This document shows positions 2,334 to 53,416 of a stretch of 62,739 bases of DNA, piece by piece. The notes below the pieces were generated by a model that made no database searches, was not told the DNA's origin, and saw nothing but the letters and a program-made list of their open reading frames with translations. The position numbers and the translations under genes are program-made. The DNA is from Bacteroidota bacterium. Its GTDB lineage: Bacteria > Bacteroidota > Ignavibacteria > Kapaibacteriales > UBA2268. The stretch covers positions 1 through 62,739 of the forward strand of contig WRLB01000001.1 of NCBI GenBank assembly GCA_009777815.1. Direction: 5' to 3'. Numbering within the stretch: the stretch's first letter is position 1; each line of letters opens with the position of its first letter.

Positions 2334-4907
2334 ATGAATAGAAAATCGTTAATTTCATTGTTGCAACTTATAGGTTGCAAAATTGTATTAGTTGTAGTAG
2401 TAATATGTGGTTCTACAACAATAAAAGCGTTTGTAGTAACATCTTTTCCAGAATCTGATTTCTTGGTAATAGACCATACTACATACCAACGTGTTATGCA
2501 ATATCCTCCTGCAGTAAATATTTCAATAGATAGCACAATTATTGGCTATTATTACGAAGGTGGAAATACTTATAAATTAACTGACACAAGCGAATTTATG
2601 ACTGTTATTCTTTGGAATGTAGCACATAAAATTGATGCTTCGAAGGATTTCGTTTTCAGTTGTAAAGTATACTTTGGAAGTGGAAGGAAAAAGAACAATA
2701 AACTACCTCCCAAAACACCTAATGTTGCAGATGGGATTTGTATAATTTTTTCTGACAAAAAAAATATAGATTCAAACACAATTGGTGGCAAGCAAGCTAA
2801 TATTGGTTATGTTGGGATTGATTCTTCTATAGCAGTAGAATTAGACACTGAACGTGACCCGCCACAAAATGAGGGCTTCGAATGGGATGCCTCTAATATA
2901 TCTTGCCACCATATCAGTTATATAAGAGGGAATTCTATGGCGGCTTTAGATGGTATTGCATCACCTATGCAGAATAATTGGGGCAGTGTGGCTACTGGCC
3001 AATGGTATTGCTGTAATGTTGTTTGGCGGCAACATACAACAGGAGGATATGTGCTTGAAACATACCTTGAAGAAAAACAAAGTGGACAAATGCTTTTGAG
3101 ACATAGTAAGCATTTTAGTTCTTTGTCTGATTTTATTGATGGGTTATCAGTGGACTCTAACTGTCAAGCATTAATAAATTTTGGTGTTTCTTCATCCACA
3201 TGTATGAATCCTAATAAACATCAGATTGAGTTCTTGGAACTTCAAACAGGCAACATTGTTTTTGGTGGCGACAGCACACGAGTTCGTATACTATTTGATA
3301 ACTGTGGCTTTACAGGAACAGGATATTCCAACCAAATAAACGCTCATTGCGGCAATATCACTACCGCTTATGATTTTGACGTGGACACATTAATTGTCAA
3401 TTGTTCAGGATTTAGAATTGTTTGTTTAACCGAAGAACGTTATTCTGATGACTGGTATAATTTTGCTTATTTTAATTTGCACAATTTTAATAATCCTGAA
3501 TTTTGCTATATGAAAAATGGTGAGTGTATTCCATTTTACGCTGCGGAAGGCGACACAATCAACCTATATCCTTATATAGCAAACAATCCATCTGACAAAT
3601 ACATAGATACATTTTATATTCGTATGGTTGCTATGGGAGATACTGTATATTTTGGAATAAGGTATTACAACCATTCTATCCTTAAAAATTATTTTTCTGC
3701 CGCTACGAATTTAAAAGATAATATGGAAATAAATGATGACACATTAAACCTTACGCTTGTTCCCGACTCATTGGAGCAATCGATAAAACTTCCGTTGCTT
3801 GATAGTTGCGAGTATGTTATTAGTGGCATAGATAGTAGTATGTTTACGGCGGCTGGCGTTCCTAAAATAGTAGGTTTGCCCGATAGTGCGGTTTTGAGTT
3901 TTCAGTTTTTAGATACCTGTGGCATCAGCACATCATTAGAAATAAGTTTGGATTGCCCTTGTATAGATCCACTTCATATAGCAATAAAAACACCAGAGTG
4001 TGATGATTGTGGCTATGTTGTTTTCTTGCCTACTATAAATTTTAGTCAATCATTGCCAGACCATATAGACGATATTGATACTGCTTATTATAATTGCCTG
4101 AACCCGTTTAGTTCTAAATATAATATAATTAATACGCAAGTAAATATATTAGAAAATAATGATAATTTAGAGATTGAAGACATTTCTGACAGAATATGTA
4201 TAAAGTTTGAATGTCCTCCTTTAGTGTGGCTTCCGACAGGAGAACCCTATGAAATTGCTACTTATAGTATTCGATTGGAAGTATGCTTAACAATAGATGC
4301 AGAGCCAGTAAAAGAGTGCTGTATGAATACAAAATTTACTTTTTCGTGTTATAATTTATTAAAAGAAGGTGGCGTTGTAAATCCTGATGGTTGCGACAAA
4401 ACGGTTGCAGTTTATTATGAATTATATGATATTCCGCCTGTGCCGATGCCACTACATATAGCAATCTACGATAAATTTGGCTACAAGAAAAAAGATGTAA
4501 TGAGCGAAGTTCCAACAAAATTATCAGATACATTATATGCTGATGTTCGGTTATTGCCACCTGATGATTATTATATAGCTATCCTTATGGGCAGTCAATT
4601 TGATGTAGTTCCATTTACGATAGAAGGTATAATAAAATCAGCGGCGGTAGTTCCAAATCCGACATCGGGCATTGCGAGTGTAGATTATGAATTAAATTGT
4701 TTGCCGTCAGAGCCGATGCGAGTAACTATAAATGATATAATAACGGGGAATGAATTGATAGAATTGCATAATGGTTTTGTTCAAACATTATCAGATTCAA
4801 TTCCGATAGATATTACTTCATTAATTGCTGGTCGCTATCTTTTGGTTATGGAGGTAAATGGAGATGTTTTTGAGTTTCCATTCATACTAAATATTATCAA
4901 GGAATAA
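2334..4907 (+). CDS. Large secreted L-type (legume) lectin-like domain protein with T9SS C-terminal sorting domain
   Basis: 857 aa with hydrophobic N-terminus. Lectin-like signature ADGICIIF..ANIGYVGIDSSIAVELDTERD..CHHISY. Cys-rich middle. C-terminus ..GRYLLVMEVNGDVFEFPFILNIIKE. Only 27 nt after the preceding gene and no promoter box, so probably co-transcribed. Confidence 0.7.
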   Translation: MNRKSLISLLQLIGCKIVLVVVVICGSTTIKAFVVTSFPESDFLVIDHTTYQRVMQYPPAVNISIDSTIIGYYYEGGNTYKLTDTSEFMTVILWNVAHKIDASKDFVFSCKVYFGSGRKKNNKLPPKTPNVADGICIIFSDKKNIDSNTIGGKQANIGYVGIDSSIAVELDTERDPPQNEGFEWDASNISCHHISYIRGNSMAALDGIASPMQNNWGSVATGQWYCCNVVWRQHTTGGYVLETYLEEKQSGQMLLRHSKHFSSLSDFIDGLSVDSNCQALINFGVSSSTCMNPNKHQIEFLELQTGNIVFGGDSTRVRILFDNCGFTGTGYSNQINAHCGNITTAYDFDVDTLIVNCSGFRIVCLTEERYSDDWYNFAYFNLHNFNNPEFCYMKNGECIPFYAAEGDTINLYPYIANNPSDKYIDTFYIRMVAMGDTVYFGIRYYNHSILKNYFSAATNLKDNMEINDDTLNLTLVPDSLEQSIKLPLLDSCEYVISGIDSSMFTAAGVPKIVGLPDSAVLSFQFLDTCGISTSLEISLDCPCIDPLHIAIKTPECDDCGYVVFLPTINFSQSLPDHIDDIDTAYYNCLNPFSSKYNIINTQVNILENNDNLEIEDISDRICIKFECPPLVWLPTGEPYEIATYSIRLEVCLTIDAEPVKECCMNTKFTFSCYNLLKEGGVVNPDGCDKTVAVYYELYDIPPVPMPLHIAIYDKFGYKKKDVMSEVPTKLSDTLYADVRLLPPDDYYIAILMGSQFDVVPFTIEGIIKSAAVVPNPTSGIASVDYELNCLPSEPMRVTINDIITGNELIELHNGFVQTLSDSIPIDITSLIAGRYLLVMEVNGDVFEFPFILNIIKE

Positions 4908-4928
4908 AGCGTTTATACAAAAAAAACG

Positions 4929-4936
4929 TATTTTTG
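4929..4936 (+). promoter_or_regulatory. -7 box TATTTTTG upstream of 4965..7430
   Basis: Exact TAnnTTTG, 29 nt before the ATG. Part of the duplicated junction (copy of 123-130). Confidence 0.4.
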
Positions 4937-4964
4937 TAAATTATATTTATCATAGGAAACGAAA

Positions 4965-8180: not shown

Positions 8181-8340
8181 TTATGCTGAACTTGTTTCAG
8201 CATCTCCATAAAAAAAGTAATTATGCAGCAAGGGGGCAAGCCCCCTTGTTAAAATAACGATTATTTAACACGGGGGGCTTGCCCCCGTGATGGATAAAGA
8301 GATTCCGAAACAAGTTCGGAATGACATTTTAGATGTCACC
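8181..8340. repeat. Composite palindromic element: F1 left arm, two GC-rich F2 hairpins, F1 right arm plus F3 tail
   Basis: GCTGAACTTGTTTCAGC 8185-8201. CAAGGGGGCAAGCCCCCTTGTTAA 8229-8252. TTAACACGGGGGGCTTGCCCCCGTG 8265-8289. GATTCCGAAACAAGTTCGGAATGACATTTTAGATGTCACC 8301-8340. Confidence 0.8.
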
Positions 8341-10388: not shown

Positions 10389-10474
10389 ATGAATCCCAGT
10401 GTTAAAGTAGATGCTGAAACAAGTTCAGCAGGACAGCATTTTGTTAATTGTCATTCCGAACTTGTTTCGGAATC
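10389..10474. repeat. Palindromic element cluster (degenerate F2 half, two F1 hairpins)
   Basis: GCTGAAACAAGTTCAGC 10413-10429. GTCATTCCGAACTTGTTTCGGAATC 10450-10474. Confidence 0.75.
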
Positions 10475-11007
10475 TCATTATTAAAAAATGGTATTTTATT
10501 ATGAACAAATAATAGTAATATAACTCCACAAGTAACACAACTATCCGCTATATTAAATACAGGAAAATGTGTGTATTGTAAAAACCAAAAGTTAATATCA
10601 GGAATATCTACTAATATAAAATCTACCACTCCCCCATAAAATAAGGGTGCAGTTCCGTAAATAACACCATAAAAACATCTATCTATTCCGTTTCCAAATG
10701 CTCCTGCAATTATCAACGTAATAGCAATACCTGCTATAAATGGCACCTCTTTTCGTATTTTATATAAATAATATACTAACAAACCACCTAAAATAATAGA
10801 CATTAACGAAGCAAAAATTTTTGCCCATCCTAATTCAATACCGAACGCTATTCCTGTATTTTCTATGTAAGTTAATTGGATTATATTGCTAATTACAGGC
10901 AAAACTTCGCCGTAATCGAATAGTTGTTTTATAGTTATTTTCGTGACCTGATCTATAATTATTAAAATTGTAGCAATAAGATAATATTTAGTTATATTGT
11001 TTTTCAT
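10444..11007 (-). CDS. lspA: Lipoprotein signal peptidase (signal peptidase II)
   Basis: 187 aa, multi-TM. Motifs NTGIAFG, GNGIDR, VVDFI, FNIADS. The last 10 codons (EIPKQVRNDN) are encoded by the F1 repeat. Confidence 0.9.
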   Translation of the reverse strand: MKNNITKYYLIATILIIIDQVTKITIKQLFDYGEVLPVISNIIQLTYIENTGIAFGIELGWAKIFASLMSIILGGLLVYYLYKIRKEVPFIAGIAITLIIAGAFGNGIDRCFYGVIYGTAPLFYGGVVDFILVDIPDINFWFLQYTHFPVFNIADSCVTCGVILLLFVHNKIPFFNNEIPKQVRNDN

Positions 11008-17307: not shown

Positions 17308-17370
17308 ATATTTTATTAAAAATAATTTTTATGCAAAAATACATAAAAATTGTAAAAAAAACATATTTAG

Positions 17371-17394
17371 CACGAGGGCTTGCCCCCGTGTTAA
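17371..17394. repeat. F2 GC-rich hairpin element
   Basis: CACGAGGGCTTGCCCCCGTGTTAA. Confidence 0.75.
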
Positions 17395-17439
17395 ATTGCT
17401 TAATCATTTTACTAAACTTATTCCTAATTCTTTTAATTG
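17393..17439 (-). repeat. Direct repeat R copy 1 (47 bp), a duplicate of the aspS 3' end
   Basis: AAATTGCTTAATCATTTTACTAAACTTATTCCTAATTCTTTTAATTG, identical to 18400..18446. It supplies the last 12 codons plus stop of the DUF2442 ORF. Confidence 0.9.
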
Positions 17440-17676
17440 ATTAACATTTACACTTTTTTCATATAGAGTTTCGGGAGCAATATCTATATCTTTCCCCCAA
17501 GAAACTGTGCCAAATGATGCTTTTGCTTTATTAAACTCCTTAACATCATTAAGAACACGATAGCATTTATAATCTAAATATCTTTTAAAATCAAATATCT
17601 TTATCTCGCCATTATCAAATTGTAATTCCAATTGATAATCGGGAAGAACCTGAACTTTTACTACATTTATTATCAT
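17404..17676 (-). CDS. DUF2442 domain protein
   Basis: 90 aa. MIINVVKVQVLPDYQLELQFDNGEIKIFDFKRYL.. is typical DUF2442. The C-terminal QLKELGISLVK is borrowed from aspS. Confidence 0.75.
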   Translation of the reverse strand: MIINVVKVQVLPDYQLELQFDNGEIKIFDFKRYLDYKCYRVLNDVKEFNKAKASFGTVSWGKDIDIAPETLYEKSVNVNQLKELGISLVK

Positions 17677-17678
17677 AA

Positions 17679-17939
17679 TTATTTTAATGGTTCTATTTTA
17701 CAAATATCTTCTTTATACATTGCTAAATCCCAATTTGCAAGCAATTCATCTTGATGTAATTCCATCCACGCTTTAATTAGCGCATTTTGCTTTTTGGGCA
17801 TTGCTCCATCAATCATTTCACACTCTTTTATGCTATAAACAGCATTATTAGATTGATAATATGCATGAATATGTGGTGGATTATGTTCTGTGTGATACAT
17901 CCTAATTATTATTCCATAAAAAACAGATATTGTTGGCAT
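17679..17939 (-). CDS. DUF4160 domain protein
   Basis: 86 aa. MPTISVFYGIIIRMYHTEHNPPHIHAYYQ is the DUF4160 signature. Lies 2 nt upstream of the DUF2442 gene (the usual two-gene pair). Confidence 0.8.
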   Translation of the reverse strand: MPTISVFYGIIIRMYHTEHNPPHIHAYYQSNNAVYSIKECEMIDGAMPKKQNALIKAWMELHQDELLANWDLAMYKEDICKIEPLK

Positions 17940-17958
17940 ATTTTATCCTTATTTATTT

Positions 17959-17990
17959 AAACTTATTCCTAATTCTTTTAATTGATTAAC
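17959..17990 (-). repeat. Direct repeat R' (32 bp), partial copy of R upstream of the DUF4160 gene
   Basis: AAACTTATTCCTAATTCTTTTAATTGATTAAC, identical to 17414..17445. Confidence 0.9.
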
Positions 17991-18052
17991 GTTTTTTAAC
18001 TTCTTTTATTCCTTTTATTACTATACAATTTTTGATTACATTATTTTTGCTA

Positions 18053-18070
18053 AATTAGTAACGTTTTTGA
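18053..18070 (+). other. Conserved 17-18 nt motif AATTAGTAACGTTTTTGA (copy 1 of 3)
   Basis: Also at 25855-25871 and 38336-38352, always on the plus strand and always shortly after a TTTG-type box. Confidence 0.6.
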
Positions 18071-18128
18071 TATTTATTTAAAGAATCCCCTATTTATCTG
18101 TTGTTTAAGCGATTTTGCCACCAAAAAA

Positions 18129-18410
18129 CCAATTATATAATTGCTTTTTGCATTATAATATGCAATTTTCGATTTATATAATTGCTTTTTGCATTATAAT
18201 ATGCAATTTTCGATTTATATAATTGCTTTTTGCATTATAATACGCAAATTCCAATTATATAATTGCTTTTCCGATTATATAATTGCTTTTCCGATTATAT
18301 AATTGCTTTTCCAATTATATAATTGCTTTTCCAATTATATAATTGCTTTTCCGATTATATAATTGCTTTTCCGATTTATAAATTGCTTTTTCAAATAACA
18401 AATTGCTTAA
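18129..18410 (+). repeat. Tandem repeat array A: 3 x 41-bp units, then 8 x 20-bp units, ending at the aspS stop codon
   Basis: AATTGCTT starts at 18139, 18180, 18221, 18261, 18281, 18301, 18321, 18341, 18361, 18381 and 18401. The 20-bp unit is AATTGCTTTTCC(G/A)ATTATAT. Confidence 0.95.
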
Positions 18411-18446
18411 TCATTTTACTAAACTTATTCCTAATTCTTTTAATTG
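18400..18446 (-). repeat. Direct repeat R copy 2 (47 bp), the genuine 3' end of aspS
   Basis: Identical to 17393..17439. Confidence 0.9.
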
Positions 18447-20222
18447 TCCTGCGTCTATAACAGACGGACAGCCGTCCATCAATGATGTTGCACTTGTTGT
18501 TTTCGGAAATGCTATTACATCGCGTATATTATCTGTGCCGCAAAGCAACATCACTATTCTATCTATTCCAAGTGCTATTCCGCCGTGTGGTGGCGCCCCG
18601 TATTGCAATGCTTTTAGCAAAAAGCCAAACTTTTCTTCTTTTTCATTATCACTTAATCCAAGCAGTTCAAACACTTTACTTTGCACTTCAGAGTTATGTA
18701 TTCTGATGCTCCCGCCTCCTATTTCATTGCCATTTAAAACTAAATCATAAGCATCTGCATTTATGGTTGAAGGGTCTGTATTTAGCATATTTATCGCATT
18801 ATTTGCATCTAAATTAGGAGAAGTAAAAGGATGATGCTTCGACACATAACGCTCTGCATCCGAATCGTATTCAAATAAAGGAAAATCAATAACATAATGA
18901 AAACTATAAGTGTTTTTTAACTTATCAATAATGCCCAACTGCTTTGCTAATTCCAATCGCAAAGCACCAAGTATAGTTAATGCACGATATTTTTCATCAG
19001 ACGAAATTAAAATCAAATCATTATTTTCTGCATTTGCTATATCTTTTATTGCTTCTATGTCATTATCATTTAAGAACTTAGCAATAGGGGAAGATATCTC
19101 GCCTGATTCATTTATCTTAATATACGCCAAACCTTTTGCTCCATATTTCTTAGCAAAATCAGTTAAATTATCTAATTGCTTTCGCGAATAATTACCTGCT
19201 CCTTTGACATTTATAAGTGCAATATATCCGTCTTTTTGACTTAACACATCCTGAAAAACTTTGAAATCCACATCCTTCATTATATTAGTAATATCTTTAA
19301 TTTTCATATCAAAACGAATATCGGGCTTATCACTTCCATACTGCAACATAGCATCTTCATAAGTCATTCGCGGGAATTTATCGGGCAAGTTAATATTGAG
19401 AATTTCCTTCCAAAGTTCCTTAAAAAGTCCTTCAATAATAGTTAAAATATCATCTCTTTCAATAAAAGACATCTCTAAGTCCAGTTGCGTAAATTCAGGT
19501 TGTCTATCAGAGCGTAAATCCTCATCTCTAAAGCATTTTACAATCTGAATGTATTTATCAAAGCCCGCCATCATTAGTATTTGTTTATAAATCTGTGGAG
19601 ATTGCGGCAAGGCATAAAACTTCCCATTATGTATTCTACTCGGCACAACATAATCTCTTGCACCTTCGGGCGTGGATTTTACTAAAATAGGCGTTTCAAC
19701 TTCTAAAAAGTTATGTTTTTCAAAATATCTATGGATTATTTGATATACCTTATTCCTAATTATAAAATTTCGCTGCAAAGAATGCCTTCGCAAATCCAAA
19801 TAACGATAGCGGAGTTTAAGTTCTTCATTAGTATCTAAATTATCAACGATTTCAAATGGTGGCAGTTCTGCTTTATTTATAATTCCGAAATCATTTAGTA
19901 GTATTTCCATATATCCTGTAGGTATTTTAGGATTAGGGTTGGAACGCAATCTTAAATTACCTTCAGCCCATATAACATATTCTGATTTTAGTGCTTTTGC
20001 TTTTTCGGCGAGTTTAGGATAATTTTCGGTTTCAATAACGAGTTGCATTATTCCGTATCTATCTCTTAAATCAATAAATACAAGTCCGCCCATATCACGG
20101 ACATTATGAATCCATCCATTTAATATGAATTTATTTTTATAATTTTCTTGTTTAAATTCGTTTGGATTAATTACATTTTGAGCGAAGTCATTGCATATAG
20201 CATTTCTTTTTTTCCAGTTCAT
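18411..20222 (-). CDS. aspS: Aspartate--tRNA ligase
   Basis: 603 aa. OB-fold N-terminus (GWIHNVRDMGGLVFIDLRDRYG). Class II motifs (FRDEDLRSDRQPEFTQLDLE, GGGSIRIH, GAPPHGGIALGIDR). Confidence 0.95.
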   Translation of the reverse strand: MNWKKRNAICNDFAQNVINPNEFKQENYKNKFILNGWIHNVRDMGGLVFIDLRDRYGIMQLVIETENYPKLAEKAKALKSEYVIWAEGNLRLRSNPNPKIPTGYMEILLNDFGIINKAELPPFEIVDNLDTNEELKLRYRYLDLRRHSLQRNFIIRNKVYQIIHRYFEKHNFLEVETPILVKSTPEGARDYVVPSRIHNGKFYALPQSPQIYKQILMMAGFDKYIQIVKCFRDEDLRSDRQPEFTQLDLEMSFIERDDILTIIEGLFKELWKEILNINLPDKFPRMTYEDAMLQYGSDKPDIRFDMKIKDITNIMKDVDFKVFQDVLSQKDGYIALINVKGAGNYSRKQLDNLTDFAKKYGAKGLAYIKINESGEISSPIAKFLNDNDIEAIKDIANAENNDLILISSDEKYRALTILGALRLELAKQLGIIDKLKNTYSFHYVIDFPLFEYDSDAERYVSKHHPFTSPNLDANNAINMLNTDPSTINADAYDLVLNGNEIGGGSIRIHNSEVQSKVFELLGLSDNEKEEKFGFLLKALQYGAPPHGGIALGIDRIVMLLCGTDNIRDVIAFPKTTSATSLMDGCPSVIDAGQLKELGISLVK

Positions 20223-22394: not shown

Positions 22395-22405
22395 AAACCA
22401 AAAAT

Positions 22406-22461
22406 GTCATTCCGAATTTATTTCAGTGTCTATTTTAACACGGGGATTCATCCCCGTGTTA
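22406..22461. repeat. F1 left arm + F2 hairpin (left half of the composite element flanking the TA pair)
   Basis: GTCATTCCGAATTTATTTCAGTGTC 22406-22430. TTAACACGGGGATTCATCCCCGTGTTA 22435-22461. Confidence 0.8.
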
Positions 22462-22528: not shown

Positions 22529-22771
22529 ATGGCAGTAGCAATTGTAGAAGTTCCGTTTCAATTGGATTTATTACAACAAATAGATAATTTCGTCGAAGAA
22601 AAAACTTGTTCAAGAGCAGATATTATTCTTGAAGCAACTAAAATGTATATTGCACATAAACAAAATTGGCAAGATATATTTTTACTTGGTGACCATCTGG
22701 CTTTAGAGAATAATCTCGCTAAAGACGATGTTATAAACGAAATAAAGGCATACCGGCAAGAAAGAAAATGA
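22529..22771 (+). CDS. Ribbon-helix-helix (CopG-like) antitoxin
   Basis: 80 aa. Beta-strand IVEVPF followed by two helices (LLQQIDNF.., SRADIILEATKMY). 4-nt ATGA overlap with the PIN gene. Confidence 0.65.
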   Translation: MAVAIVEVPFQLDLLQQIDNFVEEKTCSRADIILEATKMYIAHKQNWQDIFLLGDHLALENNLAKDDVINEIKAYRQERK

Positions 22772-23193
22772 AACTCGTATTAGATACAAATGTTTTTATA
22801 TCCTCATTTTTTTGGAGCGGCAATCCTCGGAAAATAATGACAAGAATTATAGAAAGAAAAGATGTCCTGTTTGCTTCTAACGAAATACTACAAGAAGTAT
22901 TTTTTGTTATGTCACGCCCTAAATTTAATGTGTCTCATCATCAAGTTGTTCATTTTGTTAATTCTATTGCAGAAATTTCCAGTCGTGTTAATTTATTGGG
23001 AACAGTAAAAGGAGTTTGTCGTGATAGTGATGACGATAAAATATTGGAATGTGCTATATTAGGCAAAGTAGATTTTATAATTACAGGCGATAAAGATTTA
23101 TTAATTTTGAAAAAATTTAAAGAAATACCCATATTATCTCCTTTGGAATATATTGAAAAGATTAAAAAAATTAATAGATTAAACATCCATTAA
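22768..23193 (+). CDS. PIN-domain toxin (VapC-like, PIN_3 type)
   Basis: 141 aa. MKLVLDTNVFISSF (Asp5), ..NEILQEV.., CRDSDDDKILECA, IITGDKDLL acidic residues. Confidence 0.8.
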   Translation: MKLVLDTNVFISSFFWSGNPRKIMTRIIERKDVLFASNEILQEVFFVMSRPKFNVSHHQVVHFVNSIAEISSRVNLLGTVKGVCRDSDDDKILECAILGKVDFIITGDKDLLILKKFKEIPILSPLEYIEKIKKINRLNIH

Positions 23194-23250
23194 CACGGGG
23201 GCTTGCCCCCGTGCTAATTTTATGGGAATTCCGAAATAAATTCGGAATGA
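23190..23250. repeat. F2 hairpin + F1 right arm (right half of the composite element flanking the TA pair)
   Basis: TTAACACGGGGGCTTGCCCCCGTGCTAA 23190-23217 (contains the PIN stop codon). GGAATTCCGAAATAAATTCGGAATGA 23225-23250. Confidence 0.8.
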
Positions 23251-23382
23251 TATTTTGTATAATTCTCCTCATCTGTGCATTCACCACCGCTGCCGATTGC
23301 CTGATTAACGGCGGACCAATGACAGGAGCGTCAATTACAGACGATATAATAATTGCTGATGGATTAGATATACCTAATGTCC

Positions 23383-25800: not shown

Positions 25801-25854
25801 CTTATTTTTCACTAATTATCTATATAATTGACATATTTTGCGTAAAAAAAACTC

Positions 25855-25871
25855 AATTAGTAACGTTTTGA
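25855..25871 (+). other. Conserved motif AATTAGTAACGTTTTGA (copy 2 of 3), abutting array B
   Basis: Same motif as 18053-18070 with one T fewer. Confidence 0.6.
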
Positions 25872-26060
25872 CGCGAAACGCCTTAATTTGACGCGAAACG
25901 CCTTAATTTGACGCGAAACGCGTTAATTTGACGCGAAACGCCTTAAATTGACGCGAAACGCCTTAATTTGACGCGAAACGCGTTAAATTGACGCGAAACG
26001 CGTTAAATTGACGCGAAACGCCTTAAAATGACGCGAAACGCCTTAAAATGACGCGAAACG
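25869..26060 (+). repeat. Tandem repeat array B: 9 full + 1 partial copies of the 20-bp unit TGACGCGAAACGC(C/G)TTAA(T/A)(T/A)
   Basis: Unit starts at 25869, 25889, ... 26049 (exactly 20 bp apart). Units 3, 6 and 7 contain the inverted repeat ACGCG-AAA-CGCGT. Confidence 0.95.
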
Positions 26061-26142
26061 CACGAAAAAAACTCCTAATTTGATTTTAAGTCACGTAATG
26101 TAAAAGAATAAGAGGATTGCGGATAATTACATATTTTTTCCT

Positions 26143-31929: not shown

Positions 31930-32107
31930 GTCAGTGTTCATTTTAAGGAACATAATATTTTTATATTCTCCCTGTCATAGATTATCATTTTTTTGTTATT
32001 TTTGTATAATTTTTTAGATTAAATTAACATTAAATTATGTTAAAAGTAGATATCAATGACAGTGGAGAGTATAGCAGAAAAAAAAGAATAAAAGAAATAT
32101 AACACGC

Positions 32108-32203
32108 AAACAATTTTTTTATAATATATAACGATAACCCCTTATTTCTCGGAGTAGAAAAAGTATAGATGTTTTTATTTCTAAAAAAAGTGTATTTTTG
32201 TAA
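32108..32203 (+). repeat. Cassette-head direct repeat C1 (96 bp, includes a promoter box)
   Basis: AAACAATTTTTTTATAATATATAACGATAACCCCTTATTTCTCGGAGTAGAAAAAGTATAGATGTTTTTATTTCTAAAAAAAGTGTATTTTTGTAA. About 5 mismatches to C2. Confidence 0.95.
32193..32200 (+). promoter_or_regulatory. -7 box of R-M cassette 1
   Basis: TATTTTTG, 11 nt before the ATG at 32211. Lies within repeat C1. Confidence 0.45.
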
Positions 32204-32210
32204 ATAAACT

Positions 32211-32525
32211 ATGTATAAAGAACAAGAACATTTAACACTAAATAATAAACGAACACAAGGACAATATTTTACTAAATATAATCCATTTGAAAATGAAGGG
32301 TTTTTAGAATGGGCAGAAAAGTACAACCTTAAAGAACAAACTATACTTGAACCTTTTGCGGGTGCTAATAATTTAATAGATATGTTGAATGATAGATTAG
32401 CACGATTTAGAGAAGACACAAATGATATATTTTTAACTCCTTTCAAAGGATTAAGAAAAGATAATAAATATAGACGGCGCTTGGATTATGCTTTGGCAAG
32501 GAAGTTAATAAGTGAGGTGGCTTGA
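32211..32525 (+). pseudogene. N-terminal fragment of a gamma-class N6-adenine DNA methyltransferase (truncated after motif I)
   Basis: 104 aa. QGQYFTK (motif X-like GQYFTP) and ILEPFAGANNL (motif I), but no NPPY. The TGA overlaps the dcm ATG (TGATG). Confidence 0.55.
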
Positions 32526-33703
32526 TGTTTAAAGTAGTATCTTTGTTTTGTGGTGCAGGCGGATTAGATTTGGGTTTTAAAAAGCAAAAATTTAAAATTA
32601 TGTTTGCAAATGATTTTGATAAAGATTCCTGTGAAACATATAAAAACAATATAGATAAAAATGTTTTATGTCAGGATATAAAAGAAATAGAAAGTTTATC
32701 TATTCCTGATAATTGTGACGTTGTTTTAGGAGGGTTCCCGTGTCAGGGGTTTTCGGTTGCAAATAACAAAAGATATATAGATGACCCAAGAAATTATTTA
32801 TATAAAGAAATGTTAAGGGTAATTAAAGATAAAAAACCGAAGATATTTGTGGGAGAGAATGTAAAAGGTATGATGACTTTGGCAAAAGGGAAAGCGTTCA
32901 AACAAATACAAGAAGATTTTCAAAGTATTGGTTACGATGTAGAAGCAAAACTGCTTAATACCGCTGATTTTGGTGTCCCCCAAAACAGATTTAGAATTAT
33001 TATTATTGGCAATAATATTAATGTTAAAAATATATTTCCTGACGATATTAAGAAAAAGGTTAGAAAACTAAAAACAACAGAAAATGCAATAAAAGATTTA
33101 AAAGATATTCCAATATCTTATAATCCAATTTGTATAGCCAATAAAAAAATTTATAATCATATAGCATTTCAGAATGTTAGTGATAAATTTTTAGGTAGAA
33201 AATATAGTATAAACCAACACGATATATGTGACTATTTGAAAGAATGGCGAAATAAAAGAAAAATTTCAACAAAAAAAATAGATGAGATTTTTGGTTATAG
33301 GCACACAGCAGGTCATTGGTTCAGAAAAGATAATAATTCAGGTTCTATTCCTAAACCAAGTGATTGGTGGCGGTTAAAAAAAATATTAGATTTTGATGAT
33401 AAATATGATAAGCAAGTAACAACCCTTGAAGAGAAACAAATAACTTTTGACCAATCTTTAAGAATTGTAAATTGGGATACTCCAAGCGATACAATAACGG
33501 CTTCTATACCAGAAATTCATATTAACAGAGAAAGACGTTTGTCCGTTAGAGAATGTGCTAGATTACAAACTTTTCCTGATAAATTTGTATTTTATGGCAG
33601 TTTAAATAGTATGCACAGACAGGTTGGCAACGCTGTTCCCGTTAAGTTTGCTGTAATAATTGCAAAATGTGTTAAATTAATGTTAGAAGGAGAAAAATGT
33701 TAA
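32525..33703 (+). CDS. dcm: DNA (cytosine-5)-methyltransferase
   Basis: Motifs LFCGAGG (I), GGFPCQGFS (IV), ENV (VI), QNRFR (VIII), GNAVP (X). GAGGTGG Shine-Dalgarno upstream. ATG at 32525 (TTG at 32522 also possible). Confidence 0.93.
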   Translation: MFKVVSLFCGAGGLDLGFKKQKFKIMFANDFDKDSCETYKNNIDKNVLCQDIKEIESLSIPDNCDVVLGGFPCQGFSVANNKRYIDDPRNYLYKEMLRVIKDKKPKIFVGENVKGMMTLAKGKAFKQIQEDFQSIGYDVEAKLLNTADFGVPQNRFRIIIIGNNINVKNIFPDDIKKKVRKLKTTENAIKDLKDIPISYNPICIANKKIYNHIAFQNVSDKFLGRKYSINQHDICDYLKEWRNKRKISTKKIDEIFGYRHTAGHWFRKDNNSGSIPKPSDWWRLKKILDFDDKYDKQVTTLEEKQITFDQSLRIVNWDTPSDTITASIPEIHINRERRLSVRECARLQTFPDKFVFYGSLNSMHRQVGNAVPVKFAVIIAKCVKLMLEGEKC

Positions 33704-34449
33704 ATAATTTAGATTTAGAAAAAATAGAAAGTAAATATTTAGAAAAATTTTATCATTTTTTAAAATTTACTGAAGATGAAATGCTAAAAGGATTACAAAC
33801 AAAAGAAAAAATTAAAGATGATTGGTATAAATATTGGAATAGTGGGGCCGGTTCTAGTGATTTTGATATCGGTGCCGAAAGAATAGTATATGCTTTATTT
33901 AATGGAAAAGGTATAGGGCAACCTAATTCTTGTCCAATAGGAAGTGATTTGTTTTTTGAAGTAGATGATGCTTTTATACATATTGATTTAAAAACAGTTC
34001 AAACAAGAAATGTTGGTGATTATAACACTTCCATTTTTGTAGGTGCAAATCAAAACAGTTATAATGGCGATATGATTGTAAATAGAACTGAAATTAGAAA
34101 ATATGGACCACATTTGCCACATTATTATACTTGTGGTAAAATAAAAAAACCTTGTTTAACATATTTTGTAACTATTTTATATGAAGATATAAAATTAGAT
34201 ATTCTGAATATAAATTTATTATGTATGCCAAATGGTCAGTTAATAAATGAATATAGGACAGATGTTTTAAAAGCAGGTAAATTGGTTACGCAAACAAGAT
34301 TTAATTTTTCAAAAACATTAGATTTTAGATTATTAAAAAATAAAAAAAGAGTGAAAATTGTTTATATGAATGAAAATAAAATATTAAAAGATGATAAGTT
34401 GAAAAAAGGATTAAACTTATTATTAGATGTTTATAAAGAACAAAAATAG
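33697..34449 (+). CDS. Putative type II restriction endonuclease partnered with the C5-MTase
   Basis: 250 aa. Overlaps dcm by 7 nt and has a GGAG Shine-Dalgarno. PD-(D/E)XK-like GSDLFFEVDDAFIHIDLK. No other family recognised. Confidence 0.5.
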   Translation: MLNNLDLEKIESKYLEKFYHFLKFTEDEMLKGLQTKEKIKDDWYKYWNSGAGSSDFDIGAERIVYALFNGKGIGQPNSCPIGSDLFFEVDDAFIHIDLKTVQTRNVGDYNTSIFVGANQNSYNGDMIVNRTEIRKYGPHLPHYYTCGKIKKPCLTYFVTILYEDIKLDILNINLLCMPNGQLINEYRTDVLKAGKLVTQTRFNFSKTLDFRLLKNKKRVKIVYMNENKILKDDKLKKGLNLLLDVYKEQK

Positions 34450-34550
34450 TAACTAAAAAGATTAACAGATAACAAAACAAGTTTCGTCTTAACAATAAAC
34501 GAATTAATGGATTTTTTGAAAGAAATAAAGTAAAATACAAATAAAACAGC

Positions 34551-34646
34551 AAACAATTTTTTTATAATATATAATGATAACCCCTTATTTCTCGGAGCAG
34601 AAAAAGTATAGATGTTTTTATTTCTAAAAAAATCTTATTTTTGTAA
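34551..34646 (+). repeat. Cassette-head direct repeat C2 (96 bp, includes a promoter box)
   Basis: Same sequence as C1 with about 5 mismatches. Confidence 0.95.
34636..34643 (+). promoter_or_regulatory. -7 box of R-M cassette 2
   Basis: TATTTTTG, 14 nt before the ATG at 34657. Confidence 0.45.
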
Positions 34647-34656
34647 TATTGTTAAA

Positions 34657-35415
34657 ATGGAAATCATAAATAAAGTTTTTTGTGGTGATAGAATAGAAGT
34701 AATAAATAAGTTGCCTGAAGAGTCAGTGCATTTGATAATTACATCGCCGCCGTATAATGTTGGAATTGCTTATGATAATCATAATGATACAATGCCGTAT
34801 AACGAGTATTTGGAATTTTTAAATGAAACTTGGGAAGCGTGCTATAAGATATTAGTTAATGGTGGCAGAATAGCAATAAATATACCAAGTGTTACGGCTG
34901 ATGGTTGTTATCAACCGCTTTTTTCTGATGTTATACAGCAAATGAAAAAGATTGGCTATATTATGCGAGGCGATATTTTGTGGTATAAGCAATCTATTTC
35001 TAAAAGAACTGCTTGGGGAAGTTGGAAAAGTCCAAGTAATCCATATGTTGTGCAACCATATGAATTTGTGCTAACGTTTTCAAAAGGAACAAAGAAATTA
35101 GAAGGAGATAAAGAAATGATTGATATTACAAAAGAAGAGTTTATAGAATATTCAAATTCTTTTTGGTCAATAAAACCGCAAACACAACCCAAAGGACATC
35201 CTGTGCCTTTTCCAGAGGAGTTAGTTTATAGGTTAATAAAATTTTATACTTATAAAAATAATATAGTGTTGGACCCTTTTGGTGGAAGTGGAACAGTTGC
35301 TGTTGTAGCACAAAAAACAGGTAGAAATTTTATTTATATAGATAAGTCATTAGAATATTGTAAATTAGCAGAACAATTTATTTTAGAACAAAAGGAGAAT
35401 ATATTTTATGTTTAA
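34657..35415 (+). CDS. Beta-class N4/N6 DNA methyltransferase (SPPY type, likely N4-cytosine)
   Basis: Motif IV IITSPPYN precedes motif I VLDPFGGSGTVAVVAQKTGRNFIYID (the N6_N4_Mtase order). Start at MEIINKVFCGD, because the upstream ATG at 34612 lies within the repeat/promoter. Confidence 0.88.
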   Translation: MEIINKVFCGDRIEVINKLPEESVHLIITSPPYNVGIAYDNHNDTMPYNEYLEFLNETWEACYKILVNGGRIAINIPSVTADGCYQPLFSDVIQQMKKIGYIMRGDILWYKQSISKRTAWGSWKSPSNPYVVQPYEFVLTFSKGTKKLEGDKEMIDITKEEFIEYSNSFWSIKPQTQPKGHPVPFPEELVYRLIKFYTYKNNIVLDPFGGSGTVAVVAQKTGRNFIYIDKSLEYCKLAEQFILEQKENIFYV

Positions 35416-36202
35416 TCTTAATCATATAGATTATATAGAAACAAAACTTAAAAAACCCATTGCAAATAAAGGTATTATAGAAATAGGTGTTAATTTTAAT
35501 GATTATTTTTCTTTTAATGATGCAAATAAATATGCTTCGTTATATGCAGAAAATTTTGTTAGAAAAGCAACTACAGATAAATCAAGGCAAGAAAAATCTT
35601 CCAAAGATAGCATATTAGGAAAATTAGTTGAGGAAGTAATAATTTATTTATTAGGTTCTTTTTTTAAAGTTAATAAAAGAGATTTTACAATAACAAATAA
35701 TAAAACCGAAAATGAAATTGTAGAAGATATTATATATTCTCTTTGCATAGAAAGAAAAAATACAGGACATATTAAAAACTTTGATACAGATATAATTATT
35801 TACAACAATAAAAATATTAATACAACTAGAAAAGTTTTTATATTGTCTGCTAAAGGCACTACAAGAGAACGAATTGGTCAATTTTTGTCGCATTTATTTT
35901 TGATGGATCAAGATGTTTTAAATGCAAAATATGGTAAAAATAAATATGAAGTAATTTTTGAAAAAGAAAATATAAAACTGAAATATGCTTTTGTTACGCT
36001 TGATTGGGCGGCAGGCAAAGATTTTATTAAATATACTAAAACAGGTAAAGAAAGAAACTCTGTAAAAGAAACAGAAGTGCAATTAATTTTAGATGATAAA
36101 AAACTCGGCGGTGGAATTTATGTTTTAAACAACAATGAAAATTTTGATGGTATAGGAAACTTTACAACACTCGCAGGAACTATCTGCGATTATTTGAAAT
36201 AA
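35408..36202 (+). CDS. Putative type II restriction endonuclease partnered with the SPPY MTase
   Basis: 264 aa. 8-nt overlap with the MTase and a GGAG Shine-Dalgarno. DTDIIIY ... ILSAKGTTRERIGQ resembles the D...SxK..(R)ER catalytic variant of CCGG-family (Cfr10I/NgoMIV-like) enzymes, from memory. Confidence 0.45.
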   Translation: MFNLNHIDYIETKLKKPIANKGIIEIGVNFNDYFSFNDANKYASLYAENFVRKATTDKSRQEKSSKDSILGKLVEEVIIYLLGSFFKVNKRDFTITNNKTENEIVEDIIYSLCIERKNTGHIKNFDTDIIIYNNKNINTTRKVFILSAKGTTRERIGQFLSHLFLMDQDVLNAKYGKNKYEVIFEKENIKLKYAFVTLDWAAGKDFIKYTKTGKERNSVKETEVQLILDDKKLGGGIYVLNNNENFDGIGNFTTLAGTICDYLK

Positions 36203-36208
36203 AACAGT

Positions 36209-36262
36209 AAACAATTTTTTTATAATATATAATGATAACCCCTTATTTCTCGGAGCAGAAAA
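36209..36262 (+). repeat. Cassette-head direct repeat C3 (54-bp core only), directly upstream of rpsJ
   Basis: AAACAATTTTTTTATAATATATAATGATAACCCCTTATTTCTCGGAGCAGAAAA. Confidence 0.95.
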
Positions 36263-36305: not shown

Positions 36306-36617
36306 GTGGCAACACAGAAAATTAGAATATGCCTCAGAGCATACGACCATATCTTAATAGATAAATCGTCAGAGCGCATAGTTGATACTCTTAAAAAGAG
36401 TGGCGCCGAAATATCAGGACCAGTTCCGCTACCAACACGGCGCAGTTTATATGTGGTAAATCGTTCTCCACACGTGGATAAGAAATCTCGCGAACAGTTT
36501 GAATCAAGAATTCATAAGAGATTGATAGACATTATTAACTCTACACCAAAAGCAGTAGAAGCCCTAATGCGTTTGGAACTACCTGCAGGCGTAGATGTAG
36601 AAATTAAACAATATTAG
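36306..36617 (+). CDS. rpsJ: 30S ribosomal protein S10
   Basis: GTG start. [39 protein letters not shown]. Confidence 0.95.
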
Positions 36618-39195: not shown

Positions 39196-39329
39196 ACTCT
39201 GTTATGCGGACTTGTTTCAGCATCTACTCGCATAAAATAAGTTGATGATGAAACAAGTTCAGCATAACTGCTTTTTAATAAATGGATGTCGAAACAGGTT
39301 CTATATGACATTTTTAGATGTCACCTAAA
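39196..39329. repeat. Cluster of F1 hairpins plus F3 tail
   Basis: TGCGGACTTGTTTCAGCA, GATGAAACAAGTTCAGCA, GTCGAAACAGGTTC, ATGACATTTTTAGATGTCACCTAA. Confidence 0.75.
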
Positions 39330-43562: not shown

Positions 43563-45956
43563 ATGTCCGAAAATACAAATCCTACAAGTATTGAAAATAA
43601 TGCTGAAAACAATATTCAAAATACTAACGTAGAACTTAATGTAACAGGAAATGAAATGGATGCCGTAAGTAAGAAAAAATCTATTTCACAAATGTTTCCA
43701 AATGTTGCAGAATTTATGGAACAAAACTTCAAACAATTTGAAATGGATGACAAAGAGTTTGAAGAATTAGCATTCAAAGATGTTCCAGAAATTAAAGAAG
43801 ATGAGTTAATTAAAGGTAAAATCGTCTCTATAACGAAAGACGAAGTGCTTGTTGATATTAATTTCAAATCATATGGAATTATACCGAAAGGCGAGTTAGT
43901 TAATTCAGAAGCATACTTCGAAGGCGAAGAAATTGATGTCTATATCGAAAAAGTAGAAGACACCGATGGAAAAATAATTTTATCACGCAGGCGTGCTGAT
44001 TTTATGCGTATATGGAAAGATATACTTGCACTTCATAAAAATCAAGAAGTGATTAAAGTTAAAATTATTCGCAAGATTAAAGGCGGAATGATGGTAGAAT
44101 TATTTGGTATAGAAGCATTTTTACCAGGTTCGCAAATAGATATTCGTCCTATCAAAGATTTTGATTCTTGGGTCGGACAGAATATTGAAGTAAAAGTAGT
44201 AAAGGTAAATAATCCTTATGAAAATGTTATCGTTTCGCATAAGATATTATTAGAAGAACTGCTTGCCGACCAGCGAATGGAAATAATGAACAGATTAGAA
44301 AAAGGTTTAGTGCTTGAAGGAGTAGTTAAAGCAATTTCTGAATTCGGTGTATTTGTTGATTTAGGTGGCATAGATGGTCTTGTCCATATTACTGACTTAA
44401 GTTGGGGTAGAGTGCAGAACCCTCGCGAAGTAGTAGAAGAAGATACAGCAGTGCGAGTAGTTGTGCTTGATTTTGATAAGGTAAAACAACGTATTGCTTT
44501 AGGTATGAAGCAACTTACACCGCATCCTTGGGATGAAATAGGTGATAAGTATGTTGAAGGAACTAAAGTAGGCGGCAAGGTAGTATCACTTACCGAATAT
44601 GGTGCTTTCATAGAAATAGAAAAAGGCATAGAAGGATTAATCCACCTTAGAGAAATGTCTTGGACACAGCACGTTAAATATGCTCACCAAGTATTGCAAA
44701 TAGGACAATATGTAGAAGCACTAGTTTTAAGTATTGATAAGTCAGAGAAAAAACTATCGCTTGGTATGAAACAATTAACACCTGACCCTTGGGAAGATAT
44801 AATTAAAAAATTCCCTATTGGTTCTAAACAACAAGGTGTTATTCGGCACTTATCTACATTTGGTGCTTTTGTTGAACTTGAACAAGGAGTAGAAGGACTA
44901 ATTTATGTAGCGGATTTGAGTTGGACTAAAAGATTTATCCATCCCGCAGAAATATTTAGAAAAGGTGATGATATAGATGTTGTAATCCTAAATGTAGATT
45001 CAGAACAAAGAAGAATATCATTAGGACATAGACAACTTAAAGAAAATCCTTGGGAGAAATTAGAAGAAGTTTATCCAGTGGGTATGGAAACTGAAGCAAG
45101 AATAGAACGTATTATAGAAAAAGGAGTTATTATTGGCTTGCCTGATGACGTAGATGGATTTGTTCCAAGTTCGCAACTTTCATTTGCACCTATAAAACAC
45201 GTTAGAAATTACTTTGAGCCAGGAGATATTTTGCCTTTAAAAGTTGTAGAATTTGATAAAGAAACTAAAAAAATTGTTCTATCTGTGGTTGAGTGTTTGA
45301 GGGGTAAAGACCAAGCAATTATAGATAAATATAATAAGCAACATCCTGTTCCTCATGCTGATAGATACTCTTCGGGTACTGAACTATCTGAACATATTAA
45401 GACGTATCAACCAGGCGACAAAGAAGTAGATGAAATAATAAAACAAGAATTTTCGTATCCTGAACTGCCTGAAGATATTGTTTCTGCTACTATACACGAT
45501 ATAACAGTAGAAAAAAATGCCGAAAAACTTGGTATGACTATAGAGGAATATAAAGAATATTTAGAAATAGAAAAAGCAAAAGAATCTGCAAAAATAGTTT
45601 CTGTTGAGGAGGTTGCTCCTGTCGTAGAAGAAGTTACTCCTGCTGTTGAGGAGGTTGCTCCTGCTGTTGAGGAGGTTGCTCCTGCTGTTGAAGAAGTTGC
45701 TCCCGCTGTAGAAGAAGTTGCTCCTGCCGTGGAAGAGGTTGCTCCTGCCGTAGAGGAAGTTGCTCCTGCCGTGGAAGAAGTTGCTCCTGATGTTGAGGAA
45801 GTTGCTCCTGATGTTGAAGAGGTTGCTGAAACAGAAGAAGTTTCTGATGAAGATGATGAATATAATGAAGATATAGTTTTTGATGAAGACGATGAATATG
45901 ATGATGATGATGAAGTTCCCGATAAAGAAAAGGAAGAACCAGCATCATTGTTTTAA
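43563..45956 (+). CDS. rpsA: 30S ribosomal protein S1 with a long repetitive acidic C-terminal extension
   Basis: 797 aa. Six S1 domains (e.g. GKIVSITKDEVLVDI, GVVKAISEFGVFVDLGGIDGLVHITD, GKVVSLTEYGAFIEIEKGIEGLIH). Tail of VEEVAPA heptads plus a D/E-rich end. Confidence 0.93.
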   Translation: MSENTNPTSIENNAENNIQNTNVELNVTGNEMDAVSKKKSISQMFPNVAEFMEQNFKQFEMDDKEFEELAFKDVPEIKEDELIKGKIVSITKDEVLVDINFKSYGIIPKGELVNSEAYFEGEEIDVYIEKVEDTDGKIILSRRRADFMRIWKDILALHKNQEVIKVKIIRKIKGGMMVELFGIEAFLPGSQIDIRPIKDFDSWVGQNIEVKVVKVNNPYENVIVSHKILLEELLADQRMEIMNRLEKGLVLEGVVKAISEFGVFVDLGGIDGLVHITDLSWGRVQNPREVVEEDTAVRVVVLDFDKVKQRIALGMKQLTPHPWDEIGDKYVEGTKVGGKVVSLTEYGAFIEIEKGIEGLIHLREMSWTQHVKYAHQVLQIGQYVEALVLSIDKSEKKLSLGMKQLTPDPWEDIIKKFPIGSKQQGVIRHLSTFGAFVELEQGVEGLIYVADLSWTKRFIHPAEIFRKGDDIDVVILNVDSEQRRISLGHRQLKENPWEKLEEVYPVGMETEARIERIIEKGVIIGLPDDVDGFVPSSQLSFAPIKHVRNYFEPGDILPLKVVEFDKETKKIVLSVVECLRGKDQAIIDKYNKQHPVPHADRYSSGTELSEHIKTYQPGDKEVDEIIKQEFSYPELPEDIVSATIHDITVEKNAEKLGMTIEEYKEYLEIEKAKESAKIVSVEEVAPVVEEVTPAVEEVAPAVEEVAPAVEEVAPAVEEVAPAVEEVAPAVEEVAPAVEEVAPDVEEVAPDVEEVAETEEVSDEDDEYNEDIVFDEDDEYDDDDEVPDKEKEEPASLF
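45603..45833 (+). repeat. In-frame 21-bp tandem repeat (about 11 units) encoding VEEVAPA heptads in rpsA
   Basis: GTTGAGGAGGTTGCTCCTGCT and synonymous variants (GAA/GAG, GTA/GTT/GTG, CCT/CCC). Confidence 0.9.
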
Positions 45957-50329: not shown

Positions 50330-50362
50330 GCTAATATAATGTCAAATATTATGCCGAATATT

Positions 50363-50420
50363 GCTGAACTTGTTTCGGAATCTCCACAAAACAAAACACG
50401 GGGGCAAGCCCCCGTGTTAA
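50363..50420. repeat. F1 arm + F2 hairpin
   Basis: GCTGAACTTGTTTCGGAATCTCC 50363-50385. AACACGGGGGCAAGCCCCCGTGTTAA 50395-50420. Confidence 0.8.
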
Positions 50421-53359: not shown

Positions 53360-53416
53360 AACACGGGGATGAATCCCCGTGTTAATTGTATGTAATTCCG
53401 AACTTGTTTCGGCATC
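53360..53416. repeat. F2 hairpin + F1 arm
   Basis: AACACGGGGATGAATCCCCGTGTTAA 53360-53385. GTAATTCCGAACTTGTTTCGGCATC 53392-53416. Confidence 0.8.

Follow-up and report, generated by a model that had tools for sequence, protein, structure and literature searches.

How does a short, putative toxin-antitoxin (TA) gene pair come to lie directly behind aspS, the gene for aspartate-tRNA ligase, between exact copies of that gene's own terminus? The question is raised by a 62,739-nt (62.7 kb) stretch of DNA from an uncultured, Ignavibacteria-related lineage, hereafter the window, in which the features of the aspS locus are read on the minus strand. Domains in the large open reading frames (ORFs) of the window were called with Pfam, the significance of repeats was assessed by shuffles and z-scores, and hairpins were obtained by folding. 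Our answer is that cassettes probably turn over at the aspS 3′ flank through insertion with long target duplication (ILTD), in this case with a DhiTA-type cargo.

The aspS gene (18411..20222, minus strand) encodes 603 aa with Pfam tRNA-synt_2, GAD and tRNA_anti-codon domains, and its coding sequence is intact despite the insert. On the minus strand it ends in ...CAATTAAAAGAATTAGGAATAAGTTTAGTAAAATGATTAAGCAATTT (18446-18400), a native 47-bp terminus (R1, 18400..18446, minus strand) composed of the final 12 aspS codons, the stop and 8 further bases or, in terms of the repeats, of a 27-bp core and 20 nt here called u0 (GTAAAATGATTAAGCAATTT). R1 is the upstream copy of an outer repeat whose downstream copy, at 17393-17439, forms part of R2 (17393..17445, minus strand); the two are identical at 47 of 47 bp, so that the duplication of native aspS sequence is seen directly. 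A third copy, R′ (17958..17990, minus strand), lies 18 nt 5′ of the DUF4160 start codon and consists of 33 bp, in which GTTAAT precedes the 27-bp core from aspS. It forms the left member of an inner repeat and is identical at 33 of 33 bp to the right member at 17413-17445 (local alignment z = 11.9 against shuffles). A preliminary description of this DNA had reported the recurrence of the terminus at 17393-17439, with two proteins ending in QLKELGISLVK, and a further copy upstream of DUF4160. The first of these observations stands in sequence and coordinates; the further copy is present and identical to the R2-side stretch, as described, its length being 33 bp (17958-17990) and not 32. The insert measures 1007 bp as a whole, with an inner unit of 545 bp, and has a GC content of 25% versus 31% for the window. 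The 26-bp core CAATTAAAAGAATTAGGAATAAGTTT occurs three times on the minus strand (17414-17439, 17959-17984 and 18421-18446), and no further copy was found in the window with up to 3 mismatches allowed (0 expected in 100 shuffles). As a base-rate control, the aspS loci returned by an AspS scan of a genome collection were searched, out to 4 kb downstream, for exact copies of >15 bp from the end of aspS; none of the 79 unrelated loci had one.

Comparison with relatives identifies the origin of the repeat. QLKELGI stands near the C-terminus in all AspS homologues at 61-84% identity, which belong to the Ignavibacteria/Kapabacteria-related lineage; the AspS strain variants P0128 and P0129 end in ..ISLLK, and a degenerate-pattern scan of metagenomes returned QLKELGI.L as a common AspS ending across many other bacteria. 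Two loci with AspS ~83% identical to that of the window, L113 and L114, have plain 200-nt aspS 3′ flanks with one aspS terminus each. The aspS gene of L113 ends in ...gaaATTAAGCAATaa, and its coding stretch ..attaagcaataa matches the window's post-stop gattaagcaattt; because L113 carries this matching coding sequence, the post-stop gATTAAGCAATtt of the window is taken as ancestral aspS sequence. On these comparisons R is native to aspS and the ending of the cassette is acquired, as had been supposed, and neither of the two outcomes that the preliminary description had named as refuting its proposal was observed. In the metagenome collection the core was not found outside AspS termini, the matches there being unrelated AspS termini. 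With a codon-degenerate R pattern, the matches in metagenomes were confined to AspS termini and an AT-rich group, both unrelated, and to OmpR-type regulators in which the pattern fell in a different reading frame; they added no new cassette contexts.

The cargo consists of a DUF4160 gene of 86 aa (17679..17939, minus strand; PF13711, E = 4e-24), for a putative DhiT-like toxin, which precedes with a gap of 2 nt a DUF2442 gene of 90 aa (17404..17676, minus strand; PF10387, E = 7e-14, residues 5-75) for a putative DhiA-like antitoxin. DUF4160/DUF2442 pairs have been described as DhiTA type II TA systems (PMC8198452, PMC12065111), and the Pfam domains and gene order assign the window pair to this type as a predicted module. 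It resembles DhiTA of Dickeya dadantii (PMC8198452) in the Pfam pair, in the order of DUF4160 and then DUF2442 and in its near-abutting genes, and is unlike it in the 13-residue C-terminal extension of the window antitoxin.

That extension is where the insertion has left its mark on a protein. The DUF2442 domain stops at residue 75 of 90, which places the extension outside the domain. It amounts to 13 residues when compared with relatives of 77-78 aa, and the last 11 are aspS-derived: R2 supplies the final 11 codons and the stop (QLKELGISLVK*) of the DUF2442 ORF, and AspS and the DUF2442 protein share the C-terminus QLKELGISLVK. A native origin of this ending in the DUF2442 family, which the preliminary description had also considered, is contradicted by the relatives (40-78% identity); these measure 76-80 aa, with one exception that is a 59-aa pseudogene fragment, and end in ...EKSIKM, ...EKSVFL or ...EKSVAVN, none of them in QLKELGISLVK. 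At the end of the gene L110 reads ...attaatTAA versus ...gttaatCAA in the window, and the endings of L110 and P0005 identify GTTAAT as the last two native DUF2442 codons. The shorter ends of the relatives and the TAA of L110 thus argue that the antitoxin gene has lost its stop and runs into duplicated aspS sequence, which makes the DUF2442 gene of the window, on present comparisons, a gene fusion with aspS codons. L110 itself (180-520) holds a decaying pair of the same TA family, with the 3′ part of DUF4160 alone left and an in-frame TGA in DUF2442 (…GTVS*DRNIDIAPETLYENSIKIN*).

An artefact of assembly does not account for this arrangement. The order aspS-R / array / R′ / DUF4160-DUF2442-R, given in the preliminary description, holds in the window, and the aspS-R/TA arrangement was recovered in L081 and L112, which are JGI contigs, and in L082, an ENA contig, all assembled independently of the window; the agreement of three sources and assemblers rules the artefact out. 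An exact look-up of the AspS and DUF2442 proteins gave no record. Within aspS, L081, which comes from the strain of the window, carries a perfect 23-bp tandem duplication (523-568; AAATGCTTTAGAGATGAGGATTT, two copies) that splits the gene; the contig has N bases, and the duplication reflects either a mistake in assembly or sequencing or genuine slippage.

Presence and absence of cassettes at the repeat boundaries is observed directly between co-occurring strains. L111, from a sample shared with L082, has the array end, spacer, R, hairpin and downstream gene of the window, with a 164-aa ORF (ORF164), for which no family match was found, in place of the TA pair. The repeat around ORF164, 33 nt with 1 mismatch and reaching 61 nt at 80%, lies ~25 nt upstream of the single R. 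Deleting one repeat copy and the cassette in silico, which removed 545 bp of the window and 513 bp of L111, made the two strains collinear, with 434 matches in 446 columns, and each is therefore the empty site for the other's cassette. For the inner TA event and for the ORF164 event alike, the repeat of one strain thus aligns to a single copy in another. L104, a contig of only 524 bp from a separate sample, reads DUF2442-GTTAAT-core-AATAAATAAGG-ATG-DUF4160, a head-to-tail junction, again directly observed, that is identical to R′. Since GTTAAT consists of native DUF2442 codons, R′ is itself a copy of the head-to-tail junction and, as it includes cassette-derived sequence, not a simple duplication of host sequence.

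These observations are best explained by two nested layers at aspS. The outer and older layer would comprise a 415-bp non-coding segment, made up of the 20-bp array and a spacer, between the 47-bp aspS termini R1 and R2; the inner and younger one would comprise a 512-bp DhiTA-type cassette between 33-bp repeats, namely R′ and the left part of R2. The preliminary description had inferred one or two cassettes integrated at the aspS 3′ end, with the target regenerated. A multilayered insert at this position is supported, and regeneration of the target is seen in the intact aspS and in R2, which carries the duplicated terminus with the hairpin after it.

In the outer layer, array A with its first degenerate unit (18129..18399, minus strand) contains about seven 20-bp units as well as 41-bp units, the tandem array proper (18129-18394) having a period of 20 and 13.2 copies. 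The 20-bp unit AAAAGCAATTATATAATYGG includes a 16-bp palindrome, CCAATTATATAATTGG, the 41-bp units include TTGCATATTATAATGCAA, and no copy of the array unit was found elsewhere in the window. Exact 41-bp units number two in the window and in L081 and at least three in L082, the copy number thus differing between strains. The array units are in phase with the final 20 nt of R1, and u0, u1 and u2 have ...AAGCAATT... in common. Between the array and R′ lies an AT-rich, non-coding spacer of 138 nt (17991..18128, minus strand; 22.5% GC), with 97% identity to L111. The final ~25 nt of this spacer may represent the decayed 3′ end of a DUF2442 gene.

The array raises the question of whether duplication preceded insertion. 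A slippage-prone region downstream of aspS would then have made the R copies, and cassettes would have been placed there later, by homologous recombination with a diverged donor or by chance. Several arrays with a 20/21-bp period in the window (18129-18394, 25807-26101, 45561-45882 and 61224-61425), the register of the aspS array with the R end and the 23-bp tandem duplication inside the L081 aspS all fit such a history. It does not account for the exact coincidence of repeats and cassette boundaries, which is seen in at least six independent cases that differ in gene and locus, for the difference between the window and L111, which consists of a cassette and one repeat copy alone, or for the cassette-derived GTTAAT in R′, and we consider it unlikely. 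The same array, adjoining an addiction module, can also be read as the remnant of a mini-replicon, in which it would provide iteron- or centromere-like binding sites and the TA pair the maintenance module of a 1-kb unit that excises and replicates with Rep/Par in trans. A run of seven 20-bp units in tandem, all containing a 16-bp palindrome, stands next to a module of a kind that stabilises Thermus plasmids (PMC12724237), and in L082 the R and first 14 nt of the array found after DUF2442 are as expected if the entire 1007-bp unit formed a circle or a tandem. Neither a rep nor a par gene is present, however; comparable 20-bp arrays of other sequences occupy ordinary intergenic regions of the window, L111 has the array and spacer but no TA pair, and the L104 junction joins the TA unit alone, with no array. 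A mini-replicon thus appears highly improbable.

Insertion with target duplication also accords with the distribution of hairpins at the locus. R2 is followed by a GC-rich hairpin (AACACGGGGGCAAGCCCTCGTGCTAA) and then T8 (17354..17395, minus strand; dG -14.4 kcal/mol by folding), whereas R1 is followed by none (dG -0.2). The hairpin 3′ of R2 is probably the original aspS terminator, pushed 1 kb downstream; it belongs to a dispersed family with related copies at 22435-22461, 23190-23216 and 61445-61470. Promoters of the TAnnTTTG type are presumably used by this lineage, and no such motif occurs inside the insert. With no hairpin after R1, a strong one after R2 and no TAnnTTTG in between, transcription of the cassette probably depends on read-through from aspS. 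A scan for sigma-70 promoters and terminators was uninformative, the post-R2 hairpin falling outside the T-run spacing rule of the tool.

The preliminary description had likened the locus to att-site integrations at tRNA/tmRNA genes. Stated in full, R would be recognised by a tyrosine or serine recombinase whose gene lies elsewhere in the genome, and circular R-bearing cassettes would integrate serially at the aspS end in an integron-like manner. The identical 27-bp core at three cassette boundaries accords with this, as do the extra G(T)TAAT that the non-aspS core copies have in common on their 5′ side, the modular junctions (aspS-array, spacer-DUF4160, DUF2442-terminator, ORF164-terminator, DUF2442-array start and DUF2442-DUF4160) and the head-to-tail junction of L104, which could be a circular intermediate. 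What such a site does not predict is the variety of repeats found when other cassettes are considered. In L111, ORF164 is bracketed by a repeat other than R, ~25 nt upstream of it. Related TA pairs (66-70% identity) at other loci bear unrelated repeats, each pair having its own imperfect repeat of ~40-55 nt that reaches the next start codon: in L105-L108 the pair lies directly upstream of rpsQ, with a repeat of ~40 nt (z = 6.7), and in L109 the repeat is ~55 nt (z = 10.4). In L115, from a related species, a DUF4180 gene stands 3′ of aspS and takes its final codons (QVQHH*) from duplicated aspS in another frame; the duplicate is 36 bp, exact, from an internal aspS segment ~45 nt upstream of the aspS stop (z = 19.6), and thus differs from the segment duplicated in the window.

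Two of the loci just named have features of their own. The rpsQ gene of L105-L108 (S17; L105 928-1203) is solitary, outside the S10/spc operon, and the DhiTA pair upstream shares rpsQ leader sequence. The AspS of L115 (1716-4058) has 780 aa, and in it a DUF559 (Vsr-like endonuclease) domain separates the GAD domain from the catalytic core; this segment is edged by 26-nt GC-rich repeats (GCCACCCCTCCACAGGAGGGGAACTT) at 2721-2746, 2772-2797 and, inverted, 3157-3182, and may be an in-frame mobile insertion within aspS.

The same locus dependence of the repeats is found within the window, where two restriction-modification (R-M) cassettes lie directly upstream of rpsJ (36306-36617) and use rpsJ-upstream repeats. 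Besides a small ORF, cassette 1 (32211-34449) encodes a C5 methyltransferase and a Type II restriction enzyme; cassette 2 (34612-36202) encodes an N6/N4 methyltransferase and a BsaWI-like enzyme. A 98-nt repeat recurs at 32106, 34549 and, in part, 36207; the copies of the rpsJ-upstream sequence extend over 32080-32204, 34524-34646 and 36196-36262, the first two each preceding an R-M cassette and the third rpsJ itself, and the duplicates measure 66-125 nt, the first pair aligning over ~125 nt and the second at 65/66 nt (z = 38-44). The two cassettes look like nested insertions, each of which would have duplicated the rpsJ upstream region. PADLOC, run on the cassette proteins, gave no defence-system match except for the restriction enzyme.

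The unrelated, locus-specific repeats of 33-125 bp, the other segment used in L115 and the separate repeat of L111 speak against a fixed site of the att type. The accompanying statement that no integrase is present is upheld: the Pfam scan of all large ORFs found no integrase or recombinase gene in the 62.7-kb window, hence none in cis, and the sole mobility gene is an IS1-family transposase fragment of 136 aa (50714-51124), 33 kb off. Nor does R recur elsewhere in the window, and its copies are identical direct repeats, not attC-type imperfect palindromes. Rfam and tRNA scans found neither an RNA gene nor a tRNA-like target, and no inverted repeat linking the cassette ends was found. The att-site analogy is only partly supported, and an att-type or integron-like origin is unlikely.

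Several known systems share parts of this pattern. Integrase-mediated islands can occupy the 3′ ends of genes, as does SCCmec at rlmH. Islands of this kind at tRNA, tmRNA or protein-gene 3′ ends have direct repeats that equal the target 3′ end, leave the target intact and allow serial or tandem occupancy, as here; unlike them, the window element has no nearby integrase and measures 0.5-1 kb, its repeats vary by locus and the aspS segment varies by species. Integrons and clusters of attC sites lacking integrases (CALINs) resemble the locus in their co-oriented, promoter-less small cassettes, often TA, serial behind a fixed point, in their circular or head-to-tail forms and in a content that varies by strain, but here each boundary is an exact direct copy of host DNA and not attC, intI is lacking and the repeats are unrelated from locus to locus. 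With respect to the attC boxes (RYYYAAC ... GTTRRRY), GTTAATC deviates and neither an inverse box nor arm pairing was found, no dedicated attC model having been run; no intI was found in the window. R as an Xer/dif-like or attC-like site was rejected by inspection alone, likewise with no dedicated model run. A DNA transposon or miniature inverted-repeat transposable element was rejected as well, for lack of terminal inverted repeats and for duplications of 33-47 bp versus the usual 2-14 bp. Long and variable target duplications are known for IS1634, and IS1630 gives target duplications of 19-26 bp (PMC2853133). Both resemble the present case in duplications far above the usual 2-14 bp, and both differ from it in that the cassettes here have neither transposase nor terminal inverted repeats and duplications of 33-125 bp.

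The closest match is ILTD, which has been defined for units of <20 kb that have no mobility genes and are flanked by direct repeats >30 bp of variable length, with a single copy in another strain (PMC2853133). This definition follows Nobusato et al. 2000 (Gene 259:99), as cited in Furuta 2010 (PMC2853133) and Lim 2012. Among published cases are gene fusions as well as repeats of 45-47 bp that extend over the 3′ ends of genes, and a cycle of insertion, repeat-mediated amplification and release has been proposed (PMC2853133); repeat-mediated amplification is among the properties matched here (PMC2853133, PMC3457768). At aspS the repeats exceed 30 bp and are unique to the locus, and the insert is below 20 kb with no linked mobility genes. 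R and M genes within the unit, which also belong to the definition, are absent at aspS and present in the cassettes at 32211-36202; with DUF4160/DUF2442 as its cargo and no R-M system, the aspS case is a variant of ILTD and not a strict member. It resembles R-M ILTD as a small addiction-type unit that lacks a mobility gene and has locus-specific, variable direct repeats >30 bp; these overlap a gene 3′ end, create fusions, support tandem amplification and align to a single copy in another strain. It differs in its cargo, a type II TA pair and, in other strains and species, ORF164 and DUF4180 of unknown function, in the nested and reciprocal events at one hotspot and in its host, which is Ignavibacteria-like versus Helicobacter, Haemophilus and Neisseria. 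No report of a TA module with an ILTD signature was found in the searchable literature.

The enzymology of ILTD at this locus is something we infer. Repair of a staggered break, or a template switch during replication, would first have added DNA and duplicated the target. The antitoxin gene would have lost its stop, with read-through of 11 aspS-derived codons to the duplicated aspS stop. The direct repeats would then have become substrates for host homologous recombination; at 33-47 bp they are near the minimal length for recombination of the RecA type. Such recombination could amplify the cassette in tandem or excise it as a circle, of which the L104 junction would be an instance and R′ a relic; it could also delete the cassette, or allow it to re-integrate or to be exchanged among strains that have the conserved aspS terminus in common. 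RecA-type recombination of repeat-carrying circles may have been a route of later spread, and the addiction property of a TA pair would favour retention of the cassette.

Some observations weigh against this account or restrict it. For the outer, 47-bp event no isogenic empty site was found: the plain-flank relatives are at ~83% AspS identity and not syntenic downstream, a look-up by a variant of the downstream gene likewise found synteny not kept, and a pattern scan of the genome collection returned no close relative of AspS (best 52% identity), and hence no empty site. The register between the array and the R end means that the array may have expanded in situ from the aspS 3′ end, which makes an outer insertion uncertain. 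For the inner event, the DUF2442-native GTTAAT remains as G-TAAT at the 'empty' site of L111, which may therefore be a post-excision scar, so that the event may have been either gain or loss of the cassette; the 524-bp L104 is compatible with a tandem copy and a circle alike. In L082 the repeat after DUF2442 measures 61 bp, R with one mismatch and 14 nt from the start of the array, and a repetitive extragenic palindromic (REP)-like hairpin comes next; a 61-bp repeat, versus 47 bp, together with a REP-like element is not explained by a single simple event. Finally, the mechanism of ILTD is itself unknown in the literature, double-strand breakage having been suggested by the authors (PMC2853133).

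Other repeat-associated features occur in the window. Dispersed REP- or terminator-like hairpins form two families, GTCATTCCGAAC..GTTCGGAATGAC / TGCTGAACTTGTTTCAGCA and AACACGGGG..CCCCGTGTT, at 8181-8216, 10410-10475, 39210-39264, 50359-50383, 53393-53417 and 61150-61222, and also at 17366-17395 and 61445-61470; a hairpin of the first family substitutes for the post-R2 hairpin in L082. Further arrays with a 20/21-bp period are located at 25807-26101, 61224-61425 and 45561-45882. One, between purA and an RNase E/G gene, has 11 copies of TTGACGCGAAACGCCTTAAT; one, in a convergent intergenic region, has 20/41/61-bp periodicity and the palindrome TTAGAAATTTCTAA; and one, of 21 bp, is coding, inside the gene of an S1-domain protein. 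Together the arrays of the window suggest a lineage-specific class of palindrome-bearing minisatellites or protein-binding arrays.

A second TA pair, with an 80-aa antitoxin (22529-22771) and a PIN toxin (22768-23193), is bracketed by hairpin copies (TTAACACGGGG..CCCCGTGTTA; 22435-22461 and 23190-23216, 78% identical). Further out, inverted repeats of 24 nt (22401-22424 and 23233-23256) are 96% complementary, and the pair appears to have been inserted in the loop of a REP-like element. A 134-nt direct repeat (1-134 and 4807-4940, 98% identical, 4806 bp apart) coincides in part with the 3′ end of a lectin-domain gene. Its first copy is truncated at the window edge, and between the copies lie three genes for secreted proteins or proteins of the type IX secretion system (T9SS) type. 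It could be another unit flanked by long repeats or the conserved C-terminus of paralogues.

The movement of TA modules between chromosomal sites in the absence of a transposase or integrase is poorly understood, and the DhiTA cassette described here bears the signature that the Kobayashi group reported for R-M systems. It would exemplify a rarely documented route for selfish genes that have no recombinase of their own, described earlier mainly for R-M systems. Co-existing strains carry different cassettes at adjacent positions of one backbone, a head-to-tail junction fits the proposed cycle of insertion, amplification and release, and the insertion appears to have joined an antitoxin gene to codons of an essential gene. 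One signature shared by TA, R-M and unknown cassettes in a single 62-kb window speaks against a mechanism confined to restriction enzymes, and the lineage is one in which that mechanism could be studied. More tentatively, and as a possibility that we hold to be rather unlikely, the lineage may have an active, general insertion process, independent of restriction enzymes and of any recombinase gene, for promoter-less selfish cassettes at gene boundaries, in which 30-125 bp of target are duplicated through a circular or tandem intermediate and the aspS 3′ end is reused across species. If so, the mechanism would be a host DNA-repair or replication pathway and not a property of R-M systems.

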